This document shows positions 35,113 to 42,141 of a stretch of DNA of 64,000 bases, one piece after another. The stretch is from the sequence record PZ445432.1; one strand, 5' to 3'. Source of the DNA: a phage. A program made the translations under genes and the position numbers. Below the pieces are notes generated by a model. The model was not told where the DNA came from. It saw only the letters and a program-made list of their open reading frames with translations, and did no database searches. The first letter of the stretch is position 1. Each line of letters begins with the position of its first letter.

Positions 35113-35283
35113 ATGAAAAACTTGATCGTCATTGGTGTTAACACTCGCGGTATTCGTACTACGAAAACTGTTAAAACTTCTAACGTTGCTGAGATCACTA
35201 CGAACCCTAAAAAGTTTGATTTCGCCAAAGTCTCAGCAGTTATGACAGAACAATCTTTTAACCAAGCGTTAGGAATGAAATAA
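35113..35283 (+). CDS. hypothetical small protein (56 aa)
   Basis: ATG preceded by GAGAGGAAG; stop overlaps the next start (TAATG). Below the track's size cut-off. Confidence 0.4.
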   Translation: MKNLIVIGVNTRGIRTTKTVKTSNVAEITTNPKKFDFAKVSAVMTEQSFNQALGMK

Positions 35284-35726
35284 TGGGAGAGAATATTTTA
35301 GATGTTTTGCGTAGAGCTTTGCAGGATTCTAAGTTTAATGGTTCTGATAAAGAAGTCGCTAAAAGCTATCAGACCATAATCGGGGATCTTCAGCGTATTG
35401 ATAAAGATTTCATCACTTCTGAACAATTTGTGTCTTATCTCAAAGCTCAACTAAAAAGCATTAACCAGATGAAAGCTAAACTTCATGGTCAAGATCTTGA
35501 TAGTTATAGCTTGCAGTCCGCTCAGTATGAATACATTCTAAATAAGTGGTTGCAGGAGTATCTGCCTCCTCAGTTATCTGATACTGAGATTCGTAAATAC
35601 TTTGCAGAATTAGTTAAGCTAAACCCTGGAATTACAAAAGGTATGCTGATGAAAGCGATTAAGGAAGAATTTCCTGGGCGTTATGATGGTGGTACTGCTG
35701 CTCAGATTGCTGGCGAATTTAATTAA
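35283..35726 (+). CDS. GatB/YqeY-domain protein
   Basis: 147-aa ORF with the YqeY-like pattern (YLP..LS..E ... G..KG..M ... DG..A) next to the tRNA cluster. Confidence 0.55.
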   Translation: MGENILDVLRRALQDSKFNGSDKEVAKSYQTIIGDLQRIDKDFITSEQFVSYLKAQLKSINQMKAKLHGQDLDSYSLQSAQYEYILNKWLQEYLPPQLSDTEIRKYFAELVKLNPGITKGMLMKAIKEEFPGRYDGGTAAQIAGEFN

Positions 35727-35734
35727 AAATTTAT

Positions 35735-35763
35735 TTGCTAAATGCCTATAAATTCTGTATAAT
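35735..35763 (+). promoter_or_regulatory. sigma70-like promoter facing an ORF-free RNA region
   Basis: TTGCTA, 17 nt, TATAAT. Confidence 0.5.
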
Positions 35764-35769
35764 ATATTA

Positions 35770-36559
35770 ATAAATTAGAGAACAGCGGGCCGATTACGCT
35801 GAGTGCAGAATCCAAACCGGAGTGCATTGAATAGAGTCGGTGGGTTAGTTGTAAAACTAGTACACAGTGGGCGGCAATCCCGGTTAGTGGCTAGAACGTG
35901 TAAAATGGGGCGTCTGAAACCTCTCCCCTAAACTCTTCTCTAGTTTATAAATAGTGGGGTGTGGAAATCACTTATGTAGTAACACTGCCGATCTAGTATA
36001 AACGGTATTATCAAGCCGTAACTGGTGGAAGATGTAGGTTCGAATCCTACGATCGGTAAGAACTGGATAACTGGTGCTTTTAACGTAAAAGCTTCCGAGG
36101 TTAGTTGCGCACTGCCTAAACCACGCGGTAGTTGGTTCCAGACTAACCAACCAGTCTGCTGAATAGTTTTATTACGATTTAACTATGTCCAGGCTAAAGA
36201 AGAACTTTAGAAGGTATTCTAGGTGGTGAAGTTTTTCCTCCATATCGGAGTAGTTTTTCAAGCTACCAACAAAGTGGGAAATGCTGACATGAGAGATGTC
36301 ACTAATGGTGCACAATAGCACAGGTAATTCGCGATAACTCCTGTTGAGTAGCAGCAAAAGGCGGGAAGTCATGACCCCAAGCCTAACCGAGTCCTCAATA
36401 TACCGCAGGACATAACCACTAAGTCACCCTGACTTAAACTGGAAAATAATAGACGTTACTGTATTTTGTCTTGAAATACTTAATGAGTGAGACTTATGAC
36501 TCTCCCGGTATCGTCTGTATTTTTAAGAGTTTTTACGAGAGTTCTTAAAAATACTTAAA
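35770..36559 (+). ncRNA. ORF-free transcribed region, possible stable small RNAs
   Basis: About 800 nt with no plus-strand ORF, downstream of a consensus promoter; contains several hairpins and tRNA-like fragments. Confidence 0.3.
35987..36058 (+). tRNA. tRNA-like element (possible pseudo-tRNA)
   Basis: Acceptor stem GCCGATC/GATCGGT and T-arm GTAGG-TTCGAAT-CCTAC are intact, but no canonical D or anticodon stem could be folded by hand. Confidence 0.3.
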
Positions 36560-36634
36560 CGGGGTGTAGTCTAAGGGAGAGGCAGGAGTCTTCTAAATTC
36601 CTTTATGCAGGTTCGAATCCTGTCACCTCGGCCA
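36560..36634 (+). tRNA. tRNA-Arg (anticodon TCT)
   Basis: Acceptor CGGGGTG/CACCTCG, anticodon stem GGAGT/ATTCC with loop CTTCTAA, T-arm GCAGG-TTCGAAT-CCTGT, encoded CCA. Confidence 0.6.
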
Positions 36635-36668
36635 ATTTTATTAACTGTAACTAAAACAAAGGAAATAT

Positions 36669-37616
36669 ATGTTTAATACTAAAAATATGAAAGAACTGAC
36701 TTCTGAGCAAAAAGTAATTCGCACTATTAAACGTTGGGGTATTGGTTCTGTAGTTGGTTTAGCAGGTTTAATCCTAGCTTTTAATTCATATACTATTGTT
36801 TCTGATGGTACAGTTAAAACCCAAACATTTCTGGGTAAAGTAGATCCTAACCCAGTATTACCTGGTTTCCATCTTGTAAACCCATTTGCATCTTTCGATA
36901 CTTTTAGTACAAAAGATATTGCTGTAAAATTAGATAAACTTCAGGTTCCTAGCCAGGATAAGTTTAAATCCACTGTTGACCTGACTGTTATGTTGCAGTT
37001 TGATGGTTCTAAGGCACCGATCAACCGTATTAATGCAGGTACTCAGGATCAGGCGTTAGACAAATATGTTACTGAAAAATTACTGTCTACCATCCGTGAG
37101 TTTGGTAAGTCTGTACCTAAAGCACAAGATTTGTTTGATGCTAAAATTCAAGCACAATTACAAACTGCAATTCAACAGGAAGTTGAAGAGTATGCACGCC
37201 CTTATGGTTACACAGTTAAGCAAGTGTTCCTTCAGGATATTACATTGCCACCGGTAATTATGGAACAGGTACAGAATACCAAAGTTCGTGAAGAACAAGT
37301 TAATGCTGCGAAAGCTGAATTGGCTCGTGTTGAACAAGAAGCACAGCAGAAGGTTAAACAAGCAGAAGCAGATCGTGAAGCTCGTAACAACCAAGCTATT
37401 GCAAACGAACGTGATGCAGATGCTAAACTGTATGCAGCTAAGAAAGAAGCCGAAGCTAACGCCGCTCTGCAACGTACTATTACTCCTGAGATGATTCGCT
37501 GGAAACAACTAGAAGTTGAAATGACTCGTGCTCAGAAGTATCAAGGTGGTGTGCCTCAGACTGTAGTAGGTACTGGTTACGATGGTCAAATGATCATGGA
37601 TATGCGTAACAAGTAA
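36669..37616 (+). CDS. SPFH/band-7 (prohibitin/HflC-like) membrane protein
   Basis: N-terminal transmembrane segment, then a long Ala/Glu/Gln-rich coiled coil typical of SPFH proteins. Confidence 0.5.
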   Translation: MFNTKNMKELTSEQKVIRTIKRWGIGSVVGLAGLILAFNSYTIVSDGTVKTQTFLGKVDPNPVLPGFHLVNPFASFDTFSTKDIAVKLDKLQVPSQDKFKSTVDLTVMLQFDGSKAPINRINAGTQDQALDKYVTEKLLSTIREFGKSVPKAQDLFDAKIQAQLQTAIQQEVEEYARPYGYTVKQVFLQDITLPPVIMEQVQNTKVREEQVNAAKAELARVEQEAQQKVKQAEADREARNNQAIANERDADAKLYAAKKEAEANAALQRTITPEMIRWKQLEVEMTRAQKYQGGVPQTVVGTGYDGQMIMDMRNK

Positions 37617-37639
37617 TAGTTACACGTAATCTTCGAAGT

Positions 37640-37680
37640 AAGCCCTGTGTTCCCTGGAGAGCGCAGGGCTTTTCTGTTTT
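37640..37680 (+). terminator. rho-independent terminator
   Basis: AGCCCTG ... CAGGGCT hairpin followed by TTTTCTGTTTT. Confidence 0.55.
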
Positions 37681-37842
37681 AAGGTAGAGGATAAGTGTGT
37701 CTCTTTGGTCACTCAGCTATGACAAATACTTTACACTATATCACATTGAAAATCAAGTGGGGATAACAATTTTGGGGTCTATCCACTTACCTGCTACCCT
37801 TAAGCATCCTGTTATTTTCCTCTAAAAAGTTAAAAAATTCAA

Positions 37843-37871
37843 TTGCTTGAATGCTAAATTCTCTGTATAAT
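37843..37871 (+). promoter_or_regulatory. sigma70-like promoter
   Basis: TTGCTT, 17 nt, TATAAT. Confidence 0.5.
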
Positions 37872-37903
37872 ATACTTATAAATTTGAGAGAGAGGAATCT
37901 AGT

Positions 37904-38422
37904 ATGACTGTTGATGAACTAACAGAACATCTCTTATCTAGAGGGTTTGATACAGATAAGTATCATTGCTGGTTAAGTCCGGAAGGATGGCTAACAGTCC
38001 CGTTGTATGACTTCTCTGGGATGTTGAGAGGCTATCAGACTTATAATCCTTCTGCTCCAAAAGGTCATGGTAAGTGCCCCTTTGAAGCTAAATATTTTAC
38101 TTATTCAACTACACAGTGTGTATGGGGATTAGAAACTCTCAATGGAGATGAAAAAGTAGTATTGATTGCTGAATCTGTATTTAAGGCAGTTGCGTTACAT
38201 AACGCTGGTTATCCAGCCCTGGCAATGTTGGGTTCTTCCCCCGGAAAAGCATTGTTAAAGCAATTGAAATTATTACCTTTTAAATTGGTAGCTGTCGGAG
38301 ATAATGATCCTGCGGGTGAAAAATTTGCTAGAAAATTAAACGGCTTTGTTTCTCCTGTAGATGTAGATGAGATGTCTACCGAAAACTTGAAAAATTTTCT
38401 TGCTATGAAGCTAAATTTCTAA
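37904..38422 (+). CDS. Toprim-like domain protein
   Basis: VVLIAESVFKAVALHNAGYPALAMLG ... VAVGDNDPAGEKFARKL resembles a TOPRIM fold. Confidence 0.45.
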   Translation: MTVDELTEHLLSRGFDTDKYHCWLSPEGWLTVPLYDFSGMLRGYQTYNPSAPKGHGKCPFEAKYFTYSTTQCVWGLETLNGDEKVVLIAESVFKAVALHNAGYPALAMLGSSPGKALLKQLKLLPFKLVAVGDNDPAGEKFARKLNGFVSPVDVDEMSTENLKNFLAMKLNF

Positions 38423-38442
38423 TATAATATATTTATAAATTC

Positions 38443-38531
38443 GGAAGAATAGCATAACGGTATTGCAGCAGATTGCTAATCTGTCGGTTTGAAATATAGC
38501 CTTGTGGGTTCGATTCCCACTTCTTCCGCCA
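38443..38531 (+). tRNA. tRNA-Ser (anticodon GCT), type II
   Basis: Acceptor GGAAGAA/TTCTTCC, 3-bp D stem, anticodon loop TTGCTAA, long variable arm, T-arm GTGGG-TTCGATT-CCCAC, encoded CCA. Confidence 0.7.
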
Positions 38532-38537
38532 AATTCT

Positions 38538-38615
38538 GGTTCTCAAGCTCATATGGTATGAGCACCCAGCTCATAACTGGAAGGTACGTAGGTTCGAATC
38601 CTCGGGGAGCCACCA
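38538..38615 (+). tRNA. tRNA-Met/Ile2 (anticodon CAT)
   Basis: Acceptor GGTTCTC/GGGAGCC with G-U pairs, D stem GCTC/GAGC, anticodon loop CTCATAA, TTCGAAT T-loop, encoded CCA; T stem has mismatches. Confidence 0.5.
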
Positions 38616-38634
38616 AATTAAATAAGGACAACTA

Positions 38635-38823
38635 ATGGAATTATTCATAGTTTCTGTTAAATTTGCACAAGATAGAGAACGTTCGGATGAGTTTAAACAA
38701 GGGTACAGACTAGTAAAGGCTACATCTGAACTCCATGCTATGGACAAAGTAGTAGACTATATGTATAATGTAGAAGATGTTTACTACGTCAATGCTTTAG
38801 AAGCCTCAAAAGTAATTGACTAA
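38635..38823 (+). CDS. hypothetical protein
   Basis: 62-aa ORF with RBS AAGGA. Confidence 0.45.
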   Translation: MELFIVSVKFAQDRERSDEFKQGYRLVKATSELHAMDKVVDYMYNVEDVYYVNALEASKVID

Positions 38824-38832
38824 GGAGACTAT

Positions 38833-39018
38833 ATGTCTAAGTTTCAAGAACTCAAGCAAGAGCTAGAAGAATGTGCCTGCCCTGAGTGTAGAGGAATTGG
38901 TGAAAGTTCTGATGCAGAAGCAGTGGATACTTTTTGCAATATCTGGGTTTGCCCAAATTGCAAGGGTACAGGTATTAATCCTAACTGTGGTATTTCTCTA
39001 GATATTGAAAGAGGATAA
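38833..39018 (+). CDS. hypothetical zinc-ribbon protein
   Basis: CPECRG ... CPNCKG double CxxC; RBS AAGGAG. Confidence 0.45.
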   Translation: MSKFQELKQELEECACPECRGIGESSDAEAVDTFCNIWVCPNCKGTGINPNCGISLDIERG

Positions 39019-39120
39019 TACCTGTGAAACTAAAAGATTATTATATTGGTTGGTTTGTGGGACTAGTAGTAGGATTTTCACTAGGCTATAATATGTATCA
39101 ACTAATAAACTGATTACATG

Positions 39121-39193
39121 GGGGTGTAATCGAATTGGCATAGGTACTGTACTTAAAATTCAGGTTTTGTGGGTTCGAATCCCAGCGAGGCGT
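39121..39193 (+). tRNA. tRNA-like element (anticodon-like loop TAA; acceptor stem does not pair)
   Basis: Good T-arm (GTGGG-TTCGAAT-CCCAG) and anticodon-like hairpin CTGTA-CTTAAAA-TTCAG, but no 5'/3' acceptor pairing found; a -10 TATAAT lies upstream. Confidence 0.25.
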
Positions 39194-39241
39194 AACTGCC
39201 TGGTGTGATAGAGGCATCATTCCACTAATATTGGAAAACTA

Positions 39242-39472
39242 ATGAAACGAAAATTAAAAAAATCTTATATAATTAAGATAAATAAGCTAAGAAGTAGGGC
39301 AAAAGGATGGCCACTTCGGATATTAATTGCGGATAACCATATTAGATACCATGCGGAACAACGTCATTATAAACAGTGGGAGTCATACTGCCGCTCAAAA
39401 GCAGGTCGTTTAGATGGATCTTATGAGTTTCTATTTGGTAAGAAGCCTACTAGAGTAGCTTTAGGTAATTAA
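39242..39472 (+). CDS. hypothetical basic protein
   Basis: 76-aa ORF. Confidence 0.4.
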   Translation: MKRKLKKSYIIKINKLRSRAKGWPLRILIADNHIRYHAEQRHYKQWESYCRSKAGRLDGSYEFLFGKKPTRVALGN

Positions 39473-39477
39473 TACTT

Positions 39478-39568
39478 GGAAGAGCAAATCGAATTGGCGA
39501 CGAAAACCGCTTGGAAAGTGGCTGACCGGTAAAACGGCTTGAGAGTTCAAATCTCTCCTCTTCCGCCA
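39478..39568 (+). tRNA. tRNA-Ser (anticodon GGA), type II
   Basis: Acceptor GGAAGAG/CTCTTCC, anticodon loop TTGGAAA, long variable arm, T-arm GAGAG-TTCAAAT-CTCTC, encoded CCA. Confidence 0.6.
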
Positions 39569-39580
39569 AACAATTTATAT

Positions 39581-39675
39581 GGTAGGTCAATCCAACGGCT
39601 GGCGCTGGACTCCGACTTGAAATCGGTTGATCGTAGTGATACGGTGTAAGGGTTCGATCCCCTTACCTACCTCCA
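39581..39675 (+). tRNA. tRNA-Ser (anticodon TGA), type II
   Basis: Perfect acceptor GGTAGGT/ACCTACC, anticodon loop CTTGAAA, variable-arm hairpin CGTA-GTGA-TACG, T-arm AAGGG-TTCGATC-CCCTT, encoded CCA; D-loop unusually long. Confidence 0.5.
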
Positions 39676-39812
39676 AATCTTGAAGTATGCCGGAATCGGT
39701 AGACGGGGCTGCCTAAAAGGTTTATAGGGAACATCCACTCCCTGCAACATACCTCATAAAGCGGCTGAGATAAATGGTCTATCTCGTGAAGGTTCAAGTC
39801 CTTCTGCTTCTT
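39676..39812 (+). other. tRNA-like or structured RNA region, unresolved
   Basis: Contains a T-arm-like hairpin GAAGG-TTCAAGT-CCTTC and D-loop-like AATCGGTAGA, but no acceptor pairing could be found. Confidence 0.2.
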
Positions 39813-39927
39813 GATACATCTATGGCTCAAAGTGTAACGGTGCTATTTGATGCTCTTGGTAAGACTTCCCCGACATGCGTTCGGGAGTAAGCTGCTAAGA
39901 CTAGAGTAGAAGAGTTTCTGAGAGCCG

Positions 39928-40046
39928 CCACAATTGAAAATTCGTACTCGTCTTGAGCTGCGTGCAATAGGAGATAACTTGATTAGTATTCTAGAACATG
40001 CTAATTGAGGATGGTTTCGCTAACCCTGCGAGTTTTCAATTGTGGC
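39928..40046 (+). repeat. 13-bp perfect inverted repeat bracketing a 93-nt spacer
   Basis: CCACAATTGAAAA at 39928-39940 and TTTTCAATTGTGG at 40034-40046; the right arm overlaps the tRNA-His 5' end. Confidence 0.6.
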
Positions 40047-40117
40047 TATATCATAATTGGTTAATGATCCTGATTGTGAATCAGGCCTATGTGGATTCGA
40101 ATTCCACTAGCCACCCC
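40042..40117 (+). tRNA. tRNA-His (anticodon GTG)
   Basis: Acceptor GTGGCTA/TAGCCAC, D stem TCAT/ATGA, anticodon stem CCTGA/TCAGG with loop TTGTGAA, T-arm GTGGA-TTCGAAT-TCCAC, encoded CCA. Confidence 0.7.
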
Positions 40118-40143
40118 AAATTAACTTAAATAGGAAATAAAAT

Positions 40144-40341
40144 ATGGCTGATTTCTGCAAACAATGCTCCATTGATATGTGGGGCAGAGATACTGGTGAT
40201 CTTTCTGGTTTGATTACAGAAGCCGAAGTCAAAGAAGGTTATGGTGCAGTTGTGGTTTGCGAAGGATGCGGAGTTATTCGAGTAGATCATGAAGGCAAAC
40301 GTTTAGAAGAACCGGAAAATTTAGGAGAAACAAATGAGTAA
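40144..40341 (+). CDS. hypothetical zinc-ribbon protein
   Basis: CKQC ... CEGCG motif; RBS AGGAAA. Confidence 0.45.
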   Translation: MADFCKQCSIDMWGRDTGDLSGLITEAEVKEGYGAVVVCEGCGVIRVDHEGKRLEEPENLGETNE

Positions 40342-40570
40342 TGCTTTAATTAGTGAAATTATGTTAACACGTCTTGCAGAACTGCAAACTCTTCGAGATG
40401 AATCTCAGAATAACTTATCCTACCATAAACAGATGGTAGATACTCTTACTACTCGTATTGAAACTTACGAGCGTGATATTGCAGCATTACAAGCTCTTTT
40501 CTCCGTATCAGCACCAGATACGTTAGAACAGCCTGCTGTATCTCAGCCAGTAGAGACAGCATCTAGTTAA
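40334..40570 (+). CDS. hypothetical protein
   Basis: 78-aa ORF with RBS AGGAGA. Confidence 0.45.
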   Translation: MSNALISEIMLTRLAELQTLRDESQNNLSYHKQMVDTLTTRIETYERDIAALQALFSVSAPDTLEQPAVSQPVETASS

Positions 40571-40579
40571 TAGCATTTT

Positions 40580-40655
40580 TGGAGTGTAGATCAATTGGCA
40601 GATCGTCGGCCTCTGACTCCGAAGGTTCCTGGTTCGATCCCAGGCACTCCAGCCA
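40580..40655 (+). tRNA. tRNA-Gln (anticodon CTG)
   Basis: Acceptor TGGAGTG/CACTCCA, D stem GATC/GATC, anticodon loop CTCTGAC, T-arm CCTGG-TTCGATC-CCAGG, encoded CCA. Confidence 0.6.
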
Positions 40656-40661
40656 AATAAT

Positions 40662-40737
40662 TGGAGAGTAGTGTAACGGTTAGCACAACGGCCTTTGACT
40701 CCGTTAATGGTAGGTTCGATTCCTCCTTCTCCAGCCA
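40662..40737 (+). tRNA. tRNA-Gln (anticodon TTG)
   Basis: Acceptor TGGAGAG/TTCTCCA, anticodon loop CTTTGAC, T-arm GTAGG-TTCGATT-CCTCC, encoded CCA. Confidence 0.6.
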
Positions 40738-40744
40738 AAATAAT

Positions 40745-40819
40745 GCGTGATTAGTTCAGTGGCTAGAACAACTGGCTTCCAACCAGTAGACACGAGTTCG
40801 ACTCTCGTATCCCGCACCA
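40745..40819 (+). tRNA. tRNA-Gly (anticodon TCC)
   Basis: Acceptor GCGTGAT/ATCCCGC (one mismatch), D stem GTTC/GAAC, anticodon stem ACTGG/CCAGT with loop CTTCCAA, T-arm ACGAG-TTCGACT-CTCGT, encoded CCA. Confidence 0.65.
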
Positions 40820-40833
40820 AATAAGGAATCTCT

Positions 40834-41085
40834 ATGCACGTTTTTGAGTTTCGTAATAAAAGTACCAATAAACGAGTTATTGTTATTGGGGAAACATATC
40901 GAGCATATGAACAAACTGACGGCTCTGTTATCTTGAATGATGAGAAAGGGGGTTTTAGCTTTTATCCAGAAGAACCTTATGAAGAGTTTCGAAAACAATT
41001 TAACCTAGACTGGAGAAAGCATTTAAACACTGTTGCTTCATCTGTAGTACTGCCAACTACCAGTACTGTACTATCTAATGGCTGA
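40834..41085 (+). CDS. hypothetical protein
   Basis: 83-aa ORF with RBS AAGGAA. Confidence 0.45.
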   Translation: MHVFEFRNKSTNKRVIVIGETYRAYEQTDGSVILNDEKGGFSFYPEEPYEEFRKQFNLDWRKHLNTVASSVVLPTTSTVLSNG

Positions 41086-41242
41086 TAACCTAAAAGTCAA
41101 GATCGACAAACAAAAGAAACGTGTAGAAGTAGAGATTGGTGAAGAACGTGTAGCCTTCACCTTTGAATTTCTACAACAAATGGCAATGACAGTTATGACT
41201 GATAAGTCTCCTGTTATTGAAAAAGAAATCCCGTTGAAATAA
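41078..41242 (+). CDS. hypothetical small protein (54 aa)
   Basis: ATG overlapping the upstream stop; below the track's size cut-off. Confidence 0.3.
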   Translation: MADNLKVKIDKQKKRVEVEIGEERVAFTFEFLQQMAMTVMTDKSPVIEKEIPLK

Positions 41243-41250
41243 CGGGTTCT

Positions 41251-41337
41251 GCTGGGTTGGCAGAATGGTTGAATGCACCTGATTTGTAATCAGGAGGAGT
41301 AATCCCGTTGCAGGTTCGAATCCTGTGCCCAGCACCA
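41251..41337 (+). tRNA. type II (long variable arm) tRNA, anticodon reads TGT (Thr?)
   Basis: Acceptor GCTGGGT/GCCCAGC, 3-bp D stem, perfect anticodon stem CCTGA/TCAGG with loop TTTGTAA, variable-arm hairpin GGA-GTAA-TCC, TTCGAAT T-loop, encoded CCA. Confidence 0.5.
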
Positions 41338-41351
41338 ATTTAAGGACTATT

Positions 41352-41519
41352 ATGTTTAAACTGTTAGTAGTTATCTGGTATAGTCAATCAAATAGAGCGA
41401 ATACCTCCCACGTTATAGACTTTACTACTAAAAATGAAGCTGAAAAAGCATATGCTAATTTAATAGAACGCAATAAAGAATCTCGTAGTATAGTTTATGA
41501 AGTGACTAAACTTTATTAA
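41352..41519 (+). CDS. hypothetical protein
   Basis: ATG with RBS AAGGAC just after the tRNA; the track ORF begins earlier, inside the tRNA. Confidence 0.4.
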   Translation: MFKLLVVIWYSQSNRANTSHVIDFTTKNEAEKAYANLIERNKESRSIVYEVTKLY

Positions 41520-41527
41520 AAATTCAT

Positions 41528-41556
41528 TTGCTTTCCCTCTTATTTATTGTTATAAT
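41528..41556 (+). promoter_or_regulatory. sigma70-like promoter
   Basis: TTGCTT, 17 nt, TATAAT. Confidence 0.5.
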
Positions 41557-41586
41557 ATTTATATAAATTAATGAGAGGGAAACCAA

Positions 41587-41877
41587 ATGAAACGTTATCT
41601 TTCTGTTATGTTCCAAACCGGCGGCCAAAGATACACCTATGAATTTCCACCTTCCTGGAAAATCAGGGAAGGTGATCAAATAGTTGTGTTGACACCGCGT
41701 GAAGAATATAAAGTAGTGACGGTTAAACAAGTATTTCCAAAAGATCATGAACCAGCTATAGGCATCCGATATAAGATGATTCATGGCGTGGTTCGTCAAG
41801 TACCACGAACTGAGGTAGAAGTAGATAATACTGGAGAAACTAAATTCCATTATACTTCTTACTTAGACAGTGTGTGA
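41587..41877 (+). CDS. hypothetical protein
   Basis: 96-aa ORF directly after a promoter-leader cassette. Confidence 0.5.
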   Translation: MKRYLSVMFQTGGQRYTYEFPPSWKIREGDQIVVLTPREEYKVVTVKQVFPKDHEPAIGIRYKMIHGVVRQVPRTEVEVDNTGETKFHYTSYLDSV

Positions 41878-41892
41878 TGTAAATATTTTAAT

Positions 41893-41969
41893 GCTTCGGT
41901 AGCTTAGCGATCTAAAGCACTCGGCTGATAACCGAGAGATCAGGGGTTTAAATCCCTCCCGGAGTACCA
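41893..41969 (+). tRNA. tRNA-Ile (anticodon GAT)
   Basis: Acceptor GCTTCGG/CCGGAGT, D stem GCTT/AAGC, anticodon stem CTCGG/CCGAG with loop CTGATAA, T-loop TTTAAAT, encoded CCA. Confidence 0.65.
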
Positions 41970-42065
41970 AATCTAGGAATTAAGACTATGCGTCCAGGAA
42001 AGTTTAAAAAAGCTAGTTGGTCTAAAGAGTACAAAGAATACTTACTTAGCCTAGTAAAACGTAAT

Positions 42066-42141
42066 AGTTAGTTGGCAGAGTGGTTATGCGCCTCCTTCAT
42101 ACGGAGCGACTACAGTGGTTCAAATCCACTACTAACTACCA
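42066..42141 (+). tRNA. tRNA-Met/Ile2 (anticodon CAT)
   Basis: Acceptor AGTTAGT/ACTAACT, anticodon loop TTCATAC, T-arm AGTGG-TTCAAAT-CCACT, encoded CCA. Confidence 0.6.

Follow-up and report, generated by a model that had tools for sequence, protein, structure and literature searches.

A conserved tRNA-shaped element appears to cap a covarying helix in RNAX, a large ORF-free RNA of T5-like phages

The window, by which we mean the whole stretch of phage DNA analysed here (64,000 nucleotides; PZ445432.1), carries a tRNA gene cluster at 35986-42141, in which ARAGORN finds 10 tRNAs and Rfam 11, on the + strand throughout. A tRNA-like element (35987..36058, + strand) stands at the head of this cluster. 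It begins 217 nt inside an ORF-free region of about 790 nt that specifies a modular non-coding RNA, RNAX (35770..36559, + strand). RNAX runs from an inferred start to the 5' end of tRNA-Arg(UCU) (36560..36634, + strand; ARAGORN; Rfam, 49.3 bits), the gene of which encodes its CCA. The sigma-70 promoter of RNAX, TTGCTA-17-TATAAT, is located at 35735..35763 on the + strand and has 10 of 12 matches in a consensus scan. RNAX appears to be transcribed from this near-consensus promoter, which we take to bear a close likeness to the very strong PN25 promoter of T5. The promoter site is kept in all lineages and is equivalent to 'promoter P 16-17', annotated at the homologous place in T5. No + strand terminator was found between the RNAX promoter and tRNA-Arg, and tRNA-Arg is apparently co-transcribed with RNAX. 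We infer that the 3' end of RNAX is defined by RNase P cleavage at the 5' end of tRNA-Arg. The initial annotation had placed the element inside an ORF-free transcribed region, and this region is RNAX, extending from the promoter at 35735-35763 to tRNA-Arg at 36560.

The RNAX locus is already known. The T5 record AY543070, from the Ksenzenko laboratory, names the whole stretch from 'promoter P 16-17' to tRNA-Arg 'rnaX, stable RNA with unknown functions' (misc_RNA, 40848..41566), the name recurs in the records of DT57C and BF23, and a pseudo-tRNA is flagged at the locus by annotation pipelines. The window region is homologous to rnaX of T5 and DT57C. The T5 counterpart of the element lies at complement(41432..41503) in AY543070, where it is not marked as tRNA-like. 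Over a 1-kb stretch round the element, the window is 100% identical to the Escherichia phage HildyBeyeler (Tequintavirus, Demerecviridae) and 97-98% identical to many other T5-like phages.

RNAX is matched by blastn in 529 phage records (about 530 Demerecviridae genomes), and its length rises from 642-806 nt in Tequintavirus through 832-1011 nt in Epseptimavirus to 1268-1329 nt in Sugarlandvirus; the My1 version measures about 930 nt. Its GC content is 0.42 against about 0.39 for the genome, and no conserved ORF was found in it. Rfam 15 contains no RNAX family; at E<=10 it returns tRNA matches only. RNAX is a mosaic: short junction motifs are invariant, and between them entire modules are found, missing or exchanged at the tips of helices. 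RNAalifold analysis of 13 representatives reveals a covarying helix at 36316-24/36340-46 with five compensatory pairs and another at 36306-12/36350-56 with three. In an 18-bp terminal hairpin just 5' of tRNA-Arg (36516..36555, + strand; 96% paired by RNAalifold), one pair has changed compensatorily, U-A to C-G, between Tequintavirus and the remaining genera; the hairpin is also present in My1. A short hairpin at 36364..36378 (+ strand) exposes the invariant loop AGUCAUGA (36367-36374), which includes the palindrome UCAUGA. This loop occurs exactly once in each of 52 RNAX sequences, whereas its outer closing pair is G-C, A-U, G.U or U.G. Such a palindromic loop might have a role in self-association, and it is the one hint of a homo-oligomeric assembly of RNAX.

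Two other candidate readings of the region were set aside. Protein coding by RNAX was rejected, because the small 'hypothetical proteins' annotated there overlap covarying helices and because indels between lineages break their frames. A link to the upstream YqeY-like gene is no more than an idea: its Pfam match is below threshold (25.2 vs 27 bits), it lies apart from RNAX in Sugarlandvirus and it is present in phages without the element. The YqeY-like domain binds tRNA elbows in GatB.

The element consists of an acceptor stem, a D-arm, a mini-hairpin, a T-arm and A73 at 36058, with no CCA. The 7-bp acceptor stem (35987-35993/36051-36057, + strand) is formed by G.U, C-G, C-G, G-C, A-U, U-A and C-G, and the T-arm GUAGG-UUCGAAU-CCUAC (36034-36050, + strand) by 5 of 5 pairs; the initial annotation had recognised both. 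The T-arm agrees with the tRNA consensus GUUCRANYC. Its tRNA-like character is borne out by the Rfam tRNA model RF00005, which gives it 39.0 bits (gathering score, 29; E=1.1e-4 over the whole window), with the 18-nt anticodon-arm region skipped as a local end. Consistently, the element is conserved in 509 phage records.

A D-arm, which had been described as not foldable, is aligned by Rfam at 35996-36011 (+ strand), with G35996.U36011, U35997-A36010, A35998-U36009 and U35999.U36008. All universal tertiary nucleotides are present: the D-loop AAACGGUA contains A14, R15, G18, G19 and A21, and the elbow is completed by U8, U48 (Y48), U54, U55, C56 and A58. Relatives show little or no variation at these positions. 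The D stem is weak, with three pairs and U.U. In relatives, U.U is replaced by U-A and G.U by A-U; two pairs are compensatory in a lineage whose stem reads AGUU/GACU. The covariation statistics of this AU-rich stem are modest (80.8% paired, vs 84.6% when the partner is slid by -3). An alternative hairpin, ACGGU (36002-06)/GCCGU (36015-19), replaces the D-arm in the minimum-free-energy fold; it was rejected because the D-loop variants AAUUGG and AAUGGGC weaken or break its pairing, as judged by eye. The initial annotation overlooked both the D-arm and the larger RNA that encloses the element.

The initial annotation also saw no foldable anticodon arm. This holds for the canonical register, in which 1 of 5 pairs forms, but not for a register shifted by one, in which a mini-hairpin occupies the place of the anticodon arm (36015-36026, + strand). 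Its three pairs, G36015.U36026, C36016-G36025 and C36017-G36024, close a conserved hexaloop, GUAACU, and its stem covaries, being GCC/GGU in the window, ACC/GGU in phage H8 and GGC/GCC in Klebsiella phage pzk-kv7. A software cloverleaf, which the initial annotation had regarded as contrary to its view, is formally returned by ARAGORN, which forces a tRNA-Ser(ACU) call at 35986-36059; inspection by eye shows that this cloverleaf would need both an A at 33 and two mismatches in a stem, and it was rejected. Global alignment to all T5 tRNAs gave nothing above the usual ~70% that would indicate an isotype of origin.

The element is enclosed by a flank helix, the 5' strand of which (35967..35980, + strand) pairs with a 3' strand at 36062..36075 (+ strand). 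Among 24 distinct sequences, its 12 pairs are 100% paired and 5 of them have changed on both sides, whereas controls slid by one to three columns are 32-47% paired with zero double changes. The flank helix is recovered independently by RNAalifold and by the single-sequence minimum-free-energy fold, and it contains invariant C.C and G.G mismatches. My1, which belongs to a different subfamily, retains the helix with 12 of 14 positions paired and with G.G at the same place. C-2 and U-1 (35985..35986, + strand) can pair with G75 (G36060) and A74 (A36059) in the RNAalifold consensus; because these pairs are invariant in 24 of 24 sequences, they are without covariation support. An internal loop, AACA opposite A, separates the flank helix from the helix made of C-2/U-1 and the acceptor stem. 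Directly 3' of the flank helix, a further hairpin, GCUUUU-AACGU-AAAAGC (36076..36092, + strand), has 6 pairs, is 96.5% paired and shows 2 double-sided changes. Because the flank helix covaries, the tRNA shape is the tip of a long irregular arm and not a free-ended molecule. The sequence UAACUGGUG occurs both in the element loop and in the 3' flank strand, so that the 5' flank strand has two possible partners. A conformational switch on this basis was rejected because the loop shows no counterpart to the flank change C-G to G-C of the relatives L055 and L058 and because other arm types lack the repeat, as judged by eye.

The element is retained in about 94% of roughly 529 genomes, which span two subfamilies plus Sugarlandvirus, and its fold is kept by compensatory changes in Tequintavirus, Epseptimavirus, Sugarlandvirus and Myunavirus. 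Covariation was assessed by shuffles and slid controls on 13-24 distinct sequences. Across 13 distinct variants including My1, the acceptor and T stems together are 91% paired and 6 of their 12 pairs are double-changed, a result equalled in none of 500 shuffles. All variants have a fully paired (100%) T stem, in which UA is exchanged for CG and AU for GC; in the acceptor, 4 pairs have changed on both sides. The acceptor stem also carries mismatches: U5.U68 is found in 14 of 19 variants and G1.A72 in 7 of 19, G1 standing otherwise opposite U. My1 keeps both mismatches, while its pairs 4:69 and 7:66 have changed compensatorily. The window and L055 share 86% identity in the element and 70% in the adjacent protein gene.

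The arm in the anticodon position is exchangeable. Type A is the mini-hairpin of the window; its sequence CAAGCCGUAACUGGUGGAAGAU is nearly constant in lineages whose stems have covaried, which argues against neutral decay. Type B, in Epseptimavirus, is near-canonical, with U33 and UCA, but has C37 and a G.G closing pair. Type C, found in Kenya-K44 and some Klebsiella phages, is long and bipartite, CUGCA-CGC-[5-6 bp hairpin]-AGA-UGCGG, and its inner hairpin covaries. Type E (AmPh_EK80) has 6 bp and a 5-nt loop, and type F (Pectobacterium phage My1) has 5-6 bp and a 3-5-nt loop. Kenya-K44 has a T5-type RNAX with the Klebsiella-type (C) arm, and chimeric copies are present in metagenomes. In type D (STG2-like, 32 records), the tRNA shape is absent and an unrelated, non-tRNA hairpin caps the same flank helix. 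Such cap behaviour is shared by other RNAX modules, which likewise sit at helix tips. Damaged copies also occur, with the D-arm deleted in one (L078) and T-stem mismatches in two others (L064, L075). Because about 6% of RNAX genes are without the domain, it is dispensable at least in some backgrounds.

The preferred reading starts from what is observed: how the element sits in its transcription unit, how it folds and how far this fold is conserved, in what it departs from a tRNA, and how its modules are exchanged. On sequence grounds, we hold with about even confidence that the element is a tRNA-derived, tRNA-shaped domain that remains attached to RNAX, as opposed to a tRNA gene or a decaying pseudogene. 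RNAX would be transcribed from its near-consensus promoter and would fold into a multi-arm structure, one arm of which would be built of the flank helix, then C-2/U-1 with G75/A74, and then the 'acceptor' stem. The tip of this arm would be a four-way junction bearing the D-arm, the T-arm and the short variable hairpin. Because all elbow tertiary nucleotides are kept, the tip should fold into an L-shape. Because both ends are sequestered in a helix and there is no CCA, the domain would be unreleased, non-aminoacylated and non-decoding. It may then act as a peripheral docking or recognition module, composed of a tRNA-like elbow and an exchangeable hairpin, that tethers a tRNA-recognising partner to RNAX or makes a tertiary or quaternary contact. 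A docking or recognition role is likely; that the domain stays uncut, and what it binds, are what we infer.

A genuine decoding tRNA with an odd anticodon arm is called at this locus by ARAGORN and tRNAscan-type programs in several records, the call being Ser(ACU) for the window, SeC/opal-suppressor(UCA) for Epseptimavirus, intron-containing Pro(CGG) for Kenya-K44 and Leu for My1, and the near-canonical Epseptimavirus arm with its U33 and UCA would suit such a tRNA. However, a 3' CCA is encoded in 12 of the 12 other tRNA or tRNA-like genes of the cluster, where the element instead has A-AGAACU, and all six lineage types deviate from the canonical anticodon arm. None of these types combines a 5-bp stem and a 7-nt loop with U33 and a purine at position 37, this position being a pyrimidine or the loop not being 7 nt long. 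The inferred anticodon is different in every lineage; accordingly, public records give the locus conflicting labels, namely tRNA-OTHER or pseudo, Ser, Sec(UCA), Pro(CGG) with 'intron', Leu and small hypothetical proteins. Given also the acceptor mismatches and the pairing of both ends into a helix, a decoding tRNA is very improbable. The initial annotation was right that the element cannot decode, since it has no CCA and its arm is non-canonical in every lineage: it is a conserved tRNA-shaped fold and no working tRNA. The tRNA-OTHER and pseudo labels of NCBI-style pipelines would rather fit a tRNA pseudogene that decays in an intergenic spacer with no function of its own, as would the broken anticodon arm, the occasional copies with deletions or mismatches, and the tolerance of the T5 tRNA region to deletions (PMC11464382). 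Such a relic is hard to reconcile with retention in about 94% of roughly 529 genomes, compensatory changes in three stems, invariance at all tertiary positions, an almost constant type A arm and a conservation exceeding that of the neighbouring gene, and we regard it as improbable. The 'decayed tRNA' of the initial annotation, if taken as neutral decay, is not supported, given the compensatory changes across four genera and the comparison with the adjacent gene.

The main rival of the attached-domain reading is that the element serves as processing punctuation, which we consider possible but doubtful. RNase P would cut between U35986 and G35987 and a 3' nuclease after A36058, perhaps after RNase III had first cut the ~21-bp stalk of flank helix plus acceptor stem. 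A small tRNA-like RNA would thereby be freed and RNAX split into 5' and 3' products, in the manner of mascRNA/MALAT1, plant mitochondrial t-elements and T4 stable RNAs. The acceptor/T-arm stack and the elbow are intact, making the element in principle an RNase P substrate with U at -1, as in most tRNAs of the cluster. Furthermore, flank helix and acceptor stem are parted by a small internal loop (AACA opposite A), RNase P presumably already generates the 3' end of RNAX at tRNA-Arg, and the T5 record has several small 'tRNA-like stable RNAs' (RNA1, RNA2, RNA3) in the region. However, leader and trailer are locked in a covarying helix, -1 and -2 can pair with 74 and 75, and CCA is not encoded. 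In work on the T4 tRNA-Pro/Ser precursor, E. coli RNase P reportedly acts on CCA-less precursors only once their 3' end has been trimmed and CCA added; here the flank helix would block such trimming. The acceptor mismatches U.U and G.A are present in most lineages, and 32 genomes keep the helix while the tRNA shape is swapped for an unrelated hairpin. The RNase P/RNase E processing mimic proposed in the initial annotation is a possibility, though one weakened by the paired leader and trailer, the missing CCA and the replacement by a non-tRNA hairpin. A more specific version of the docking-module idea is a decoy or sponge: the domain would titrate a host nuclease of tRNA-targeting defence, or some other factor that binds tRNA, and an arms race would drive the diversity of its anticodon-arm hairpin. 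The appeal of this idea is that hypervariability is confined to the anticodon-side arm, the one read by anticodon nucleases; recombination swaps this arm between near-identical RNAX genes, the promoter is near-consensus, and T5 tRNAs are known to counter the tRNA-cleaving PARIS system (PMC11464382). On the other hand, a 7-nt anticodon-like loop is found in 0 of the 6 arm types, peripheral domains of large RNAs vary anyway, there is no tie to any particular defence system, and the domain is absent from about 6% of phages. We therefore rate the decoy as unlikely, below the punctuation reading.

In the searchable literature, the coverage of which omits most older subscription-journal papers on T5 RNAs, a description of RNAX or of the element was not found, and the origin of the GenBank 'stable RNA' label was not traced. 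Three things appear to be new: selection maintains the element as a tRNA-shaped cap, unable to decode, of a covarying helix; the arm of this cap is modular; and RNAX represents a large structured RNA family present in at least two Demerecviridae subfamilies and absent from Rfam. For annotation, the conflicting public calls at the locus of the element are corrected.

Several known RNAs resemble the element in part. mascRNA/MALAT1 and plant mitochondrial t-elements present, as RNAX does, a tRNA-like cloverleaf with a degenerate anticodon arm within a long non-coding RNA. However, they are defined by RNase P/Z cleavage and their flanks are free, whereas the flanks of the RNAX element are paired, its CCA is not encoded and its cleavage is hypothetical. 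RNA1, RNA2 and RNA3 of T5 are also non-decoding RNAs with tRNA-like parts among phage tRNA genes, and lie in the same region, but they are separate small RNAs of 73-144 nt, whereas the element is internal to an RNA of 640-1330 nt. The stable species 1 and 2 RNAs of T4 are likewise non-decoding, with tRNA-like parts, among phage tRNA genes. tmRNA and YrlA, a bacterial Y RNA, share with RNAX the mimicry of the elbow (T-arm plus D-loop) as a module of a larger RNA. The tRNA-like domain of tmRNA, of which ARAGORN found none here, is built from the two ends (5' and 3') of that RNA, bears CCA and a G3.U70 pair and becomes charged, whereas pair 3:70 of the RNAX element is an invariant C-G. YrlA has the opposite topology, with a loop closing its acceptor and the Ro-binding stem extending its anticodon side.

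The nearest precedent for an embedded tRNA-shaped unit, which the element resembles by analogy, is GOLLD. GOLLD RNAs are large phage RNAs near tRNA islands, with a linker that sometimes carries phage-encoded tRNAs, and cryoEM structures of GOLLD and ROOL exist although their function is not known (PMC12286853). RNAX is like them in kind only: it is phage-encoded and hundreds of nucleotides long, has covarying helices, lies at a tRNA cluster and carries a tRNA-shaped unit in a variable part. It matches neither covariance model, at E<=10 for RNAX of the window, L055 and L063 or at E<=1 for My1. Moreover, the inserts of GOLLD are described simply as tRNAs, whereas the unit in RNAX is non-decoding and has paired ends. 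By this analogy, it is tentatively suggested that RNAX forms a family, not described before, of giant modular ('ornate') phage RNAs with a role like that of GOLLD and ROOL, in which the element would be a tethered, exchangeable tRNA mimic and the palindromic AGUCAUGA loop would mediate self-association. RNAX shares the hallmarks of ornate RNAs, being large and modular, with covarying helices, a tRNA cluster site and a tRNA-shaped unit. E. coli K-12 offers phage engineering, RNase mutants (rnpA, rnc, rne) and defence-system strains on hand. Unlike GOLLD and ROOL, RNAX occurs in T5-like phages of this host, and if the reading is true, the role of ornate RNAs and of their tethered tRNAs would be directly testable.

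RNAX, the ORF-free non-coding RNA, carries a short hairpin at 36364-36378 of the window, whose loop, AGUCAUGA (36367-36374), is present in one copy per RNAX and is unchanged in all 52 examined sequences. The outer closing pair of this hairpin varies among RNAX sequences, being G-C, A-U, G.U or U.G. The loop contains the self-complementary UCAUGA, which together with its flanking nucleotides reads GUCAUGAC, and AGUCAUG of the loop is retained in the Pectobacterium phage My1. We infer that the UCAUGA loop is the signature of a putative kissing-loop self-association site.

The 22-nt motif AGTCACCYTGACTWWAACTGGA at 36422-36443, consisting of the hairpin AGUCA-CCY-UGACU together with UAAACUGGA, is also invariant across RNAX. 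Two copies of this motif exist in phage T5 and in another compared sequence, L069, and the T5 duplicates bracket an 87-nt insert with inverted ends. The motif also matches five metagenome contigs that are otherwise unlike RNAX (L065, L068, L073, L074 and L077), where a rough estimate gives about one match by chance. One of these matches is located immediately upstream of apparent tRNA genes, and another matching contig is GC-rich and, by eye, seemingly ORF-poor.

A 91-nt element on the plus strand at 39581-39671, followed by UCCA, scores 38.3 bits against the tRNA-Sec model, whose gathering score is 47. This element may belong with RNA1, RNA2 and RNA3, which the T5 record lists as "tRNA-like stable RNAs". 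Rfam detects a tRNA with an encoded CCA at 38538-38612 on the plus strand (38.2 bits), for which ARAGORN makes no call; it is annotated as tRNA-Met(CAT) in the record of Escherichia phage HildyBeyeler, and its positional counterpart in T5 is tRNA-Ile2(CAU). About 5 kb of the HildyBeyeler record (71646-76685, by arithmetic), carrying tRNAs Tyr, Glu, Trp, Phe, Cys, Asn, Asp and Lys, is absent from the window at about 39164. Because tRNA-Leu(UAA) is interrupted by the left junction of this gap, the weak, partial match to tRNA at 39125-39187 (23 bits) is a chimera.

The gene immediately upstream of RNAX (35283-35726, plus strand) shows a weak match to the YqeY/GatB-tail domain (25.2 bits, below the cut-off of 27), and is labelled "tRNA amidotransferase" or "recombination-related exonuclease" in records. 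This domain binds the D-loop/elbow of tRNA in GatCAB. In Sugarlandvirus the gene is not adjacent to RNAX.

Three small "hypothetical proteins" of the HildyBeyeler record, bas33_0080 to 0082, fall inside RNAX at 36172-36372 (minus strand), 35804-35932 (plus) and 36026-36163 (plus). Their frames overlap with covarying RNAX helices and are not kept between lineages, and therefore they are probably over-calls. Some phages have ORFs within or next to RNAX. An HNH-endonuclease-like ORF, its translation judged by eye, takes the place of the RNAX 5' module in phage H8 (L050, 2990-3470), and ORFs of 480 nt and 510 nt flank RNAX in Epseptimavirus (L059 and L060, 728-1207 and 1794-2303). Homing-endonuclease traffic is known in the T5 tRNA region, and the RNAX-associated ORFs of H8 and Epseptimavirus fit this pattern.
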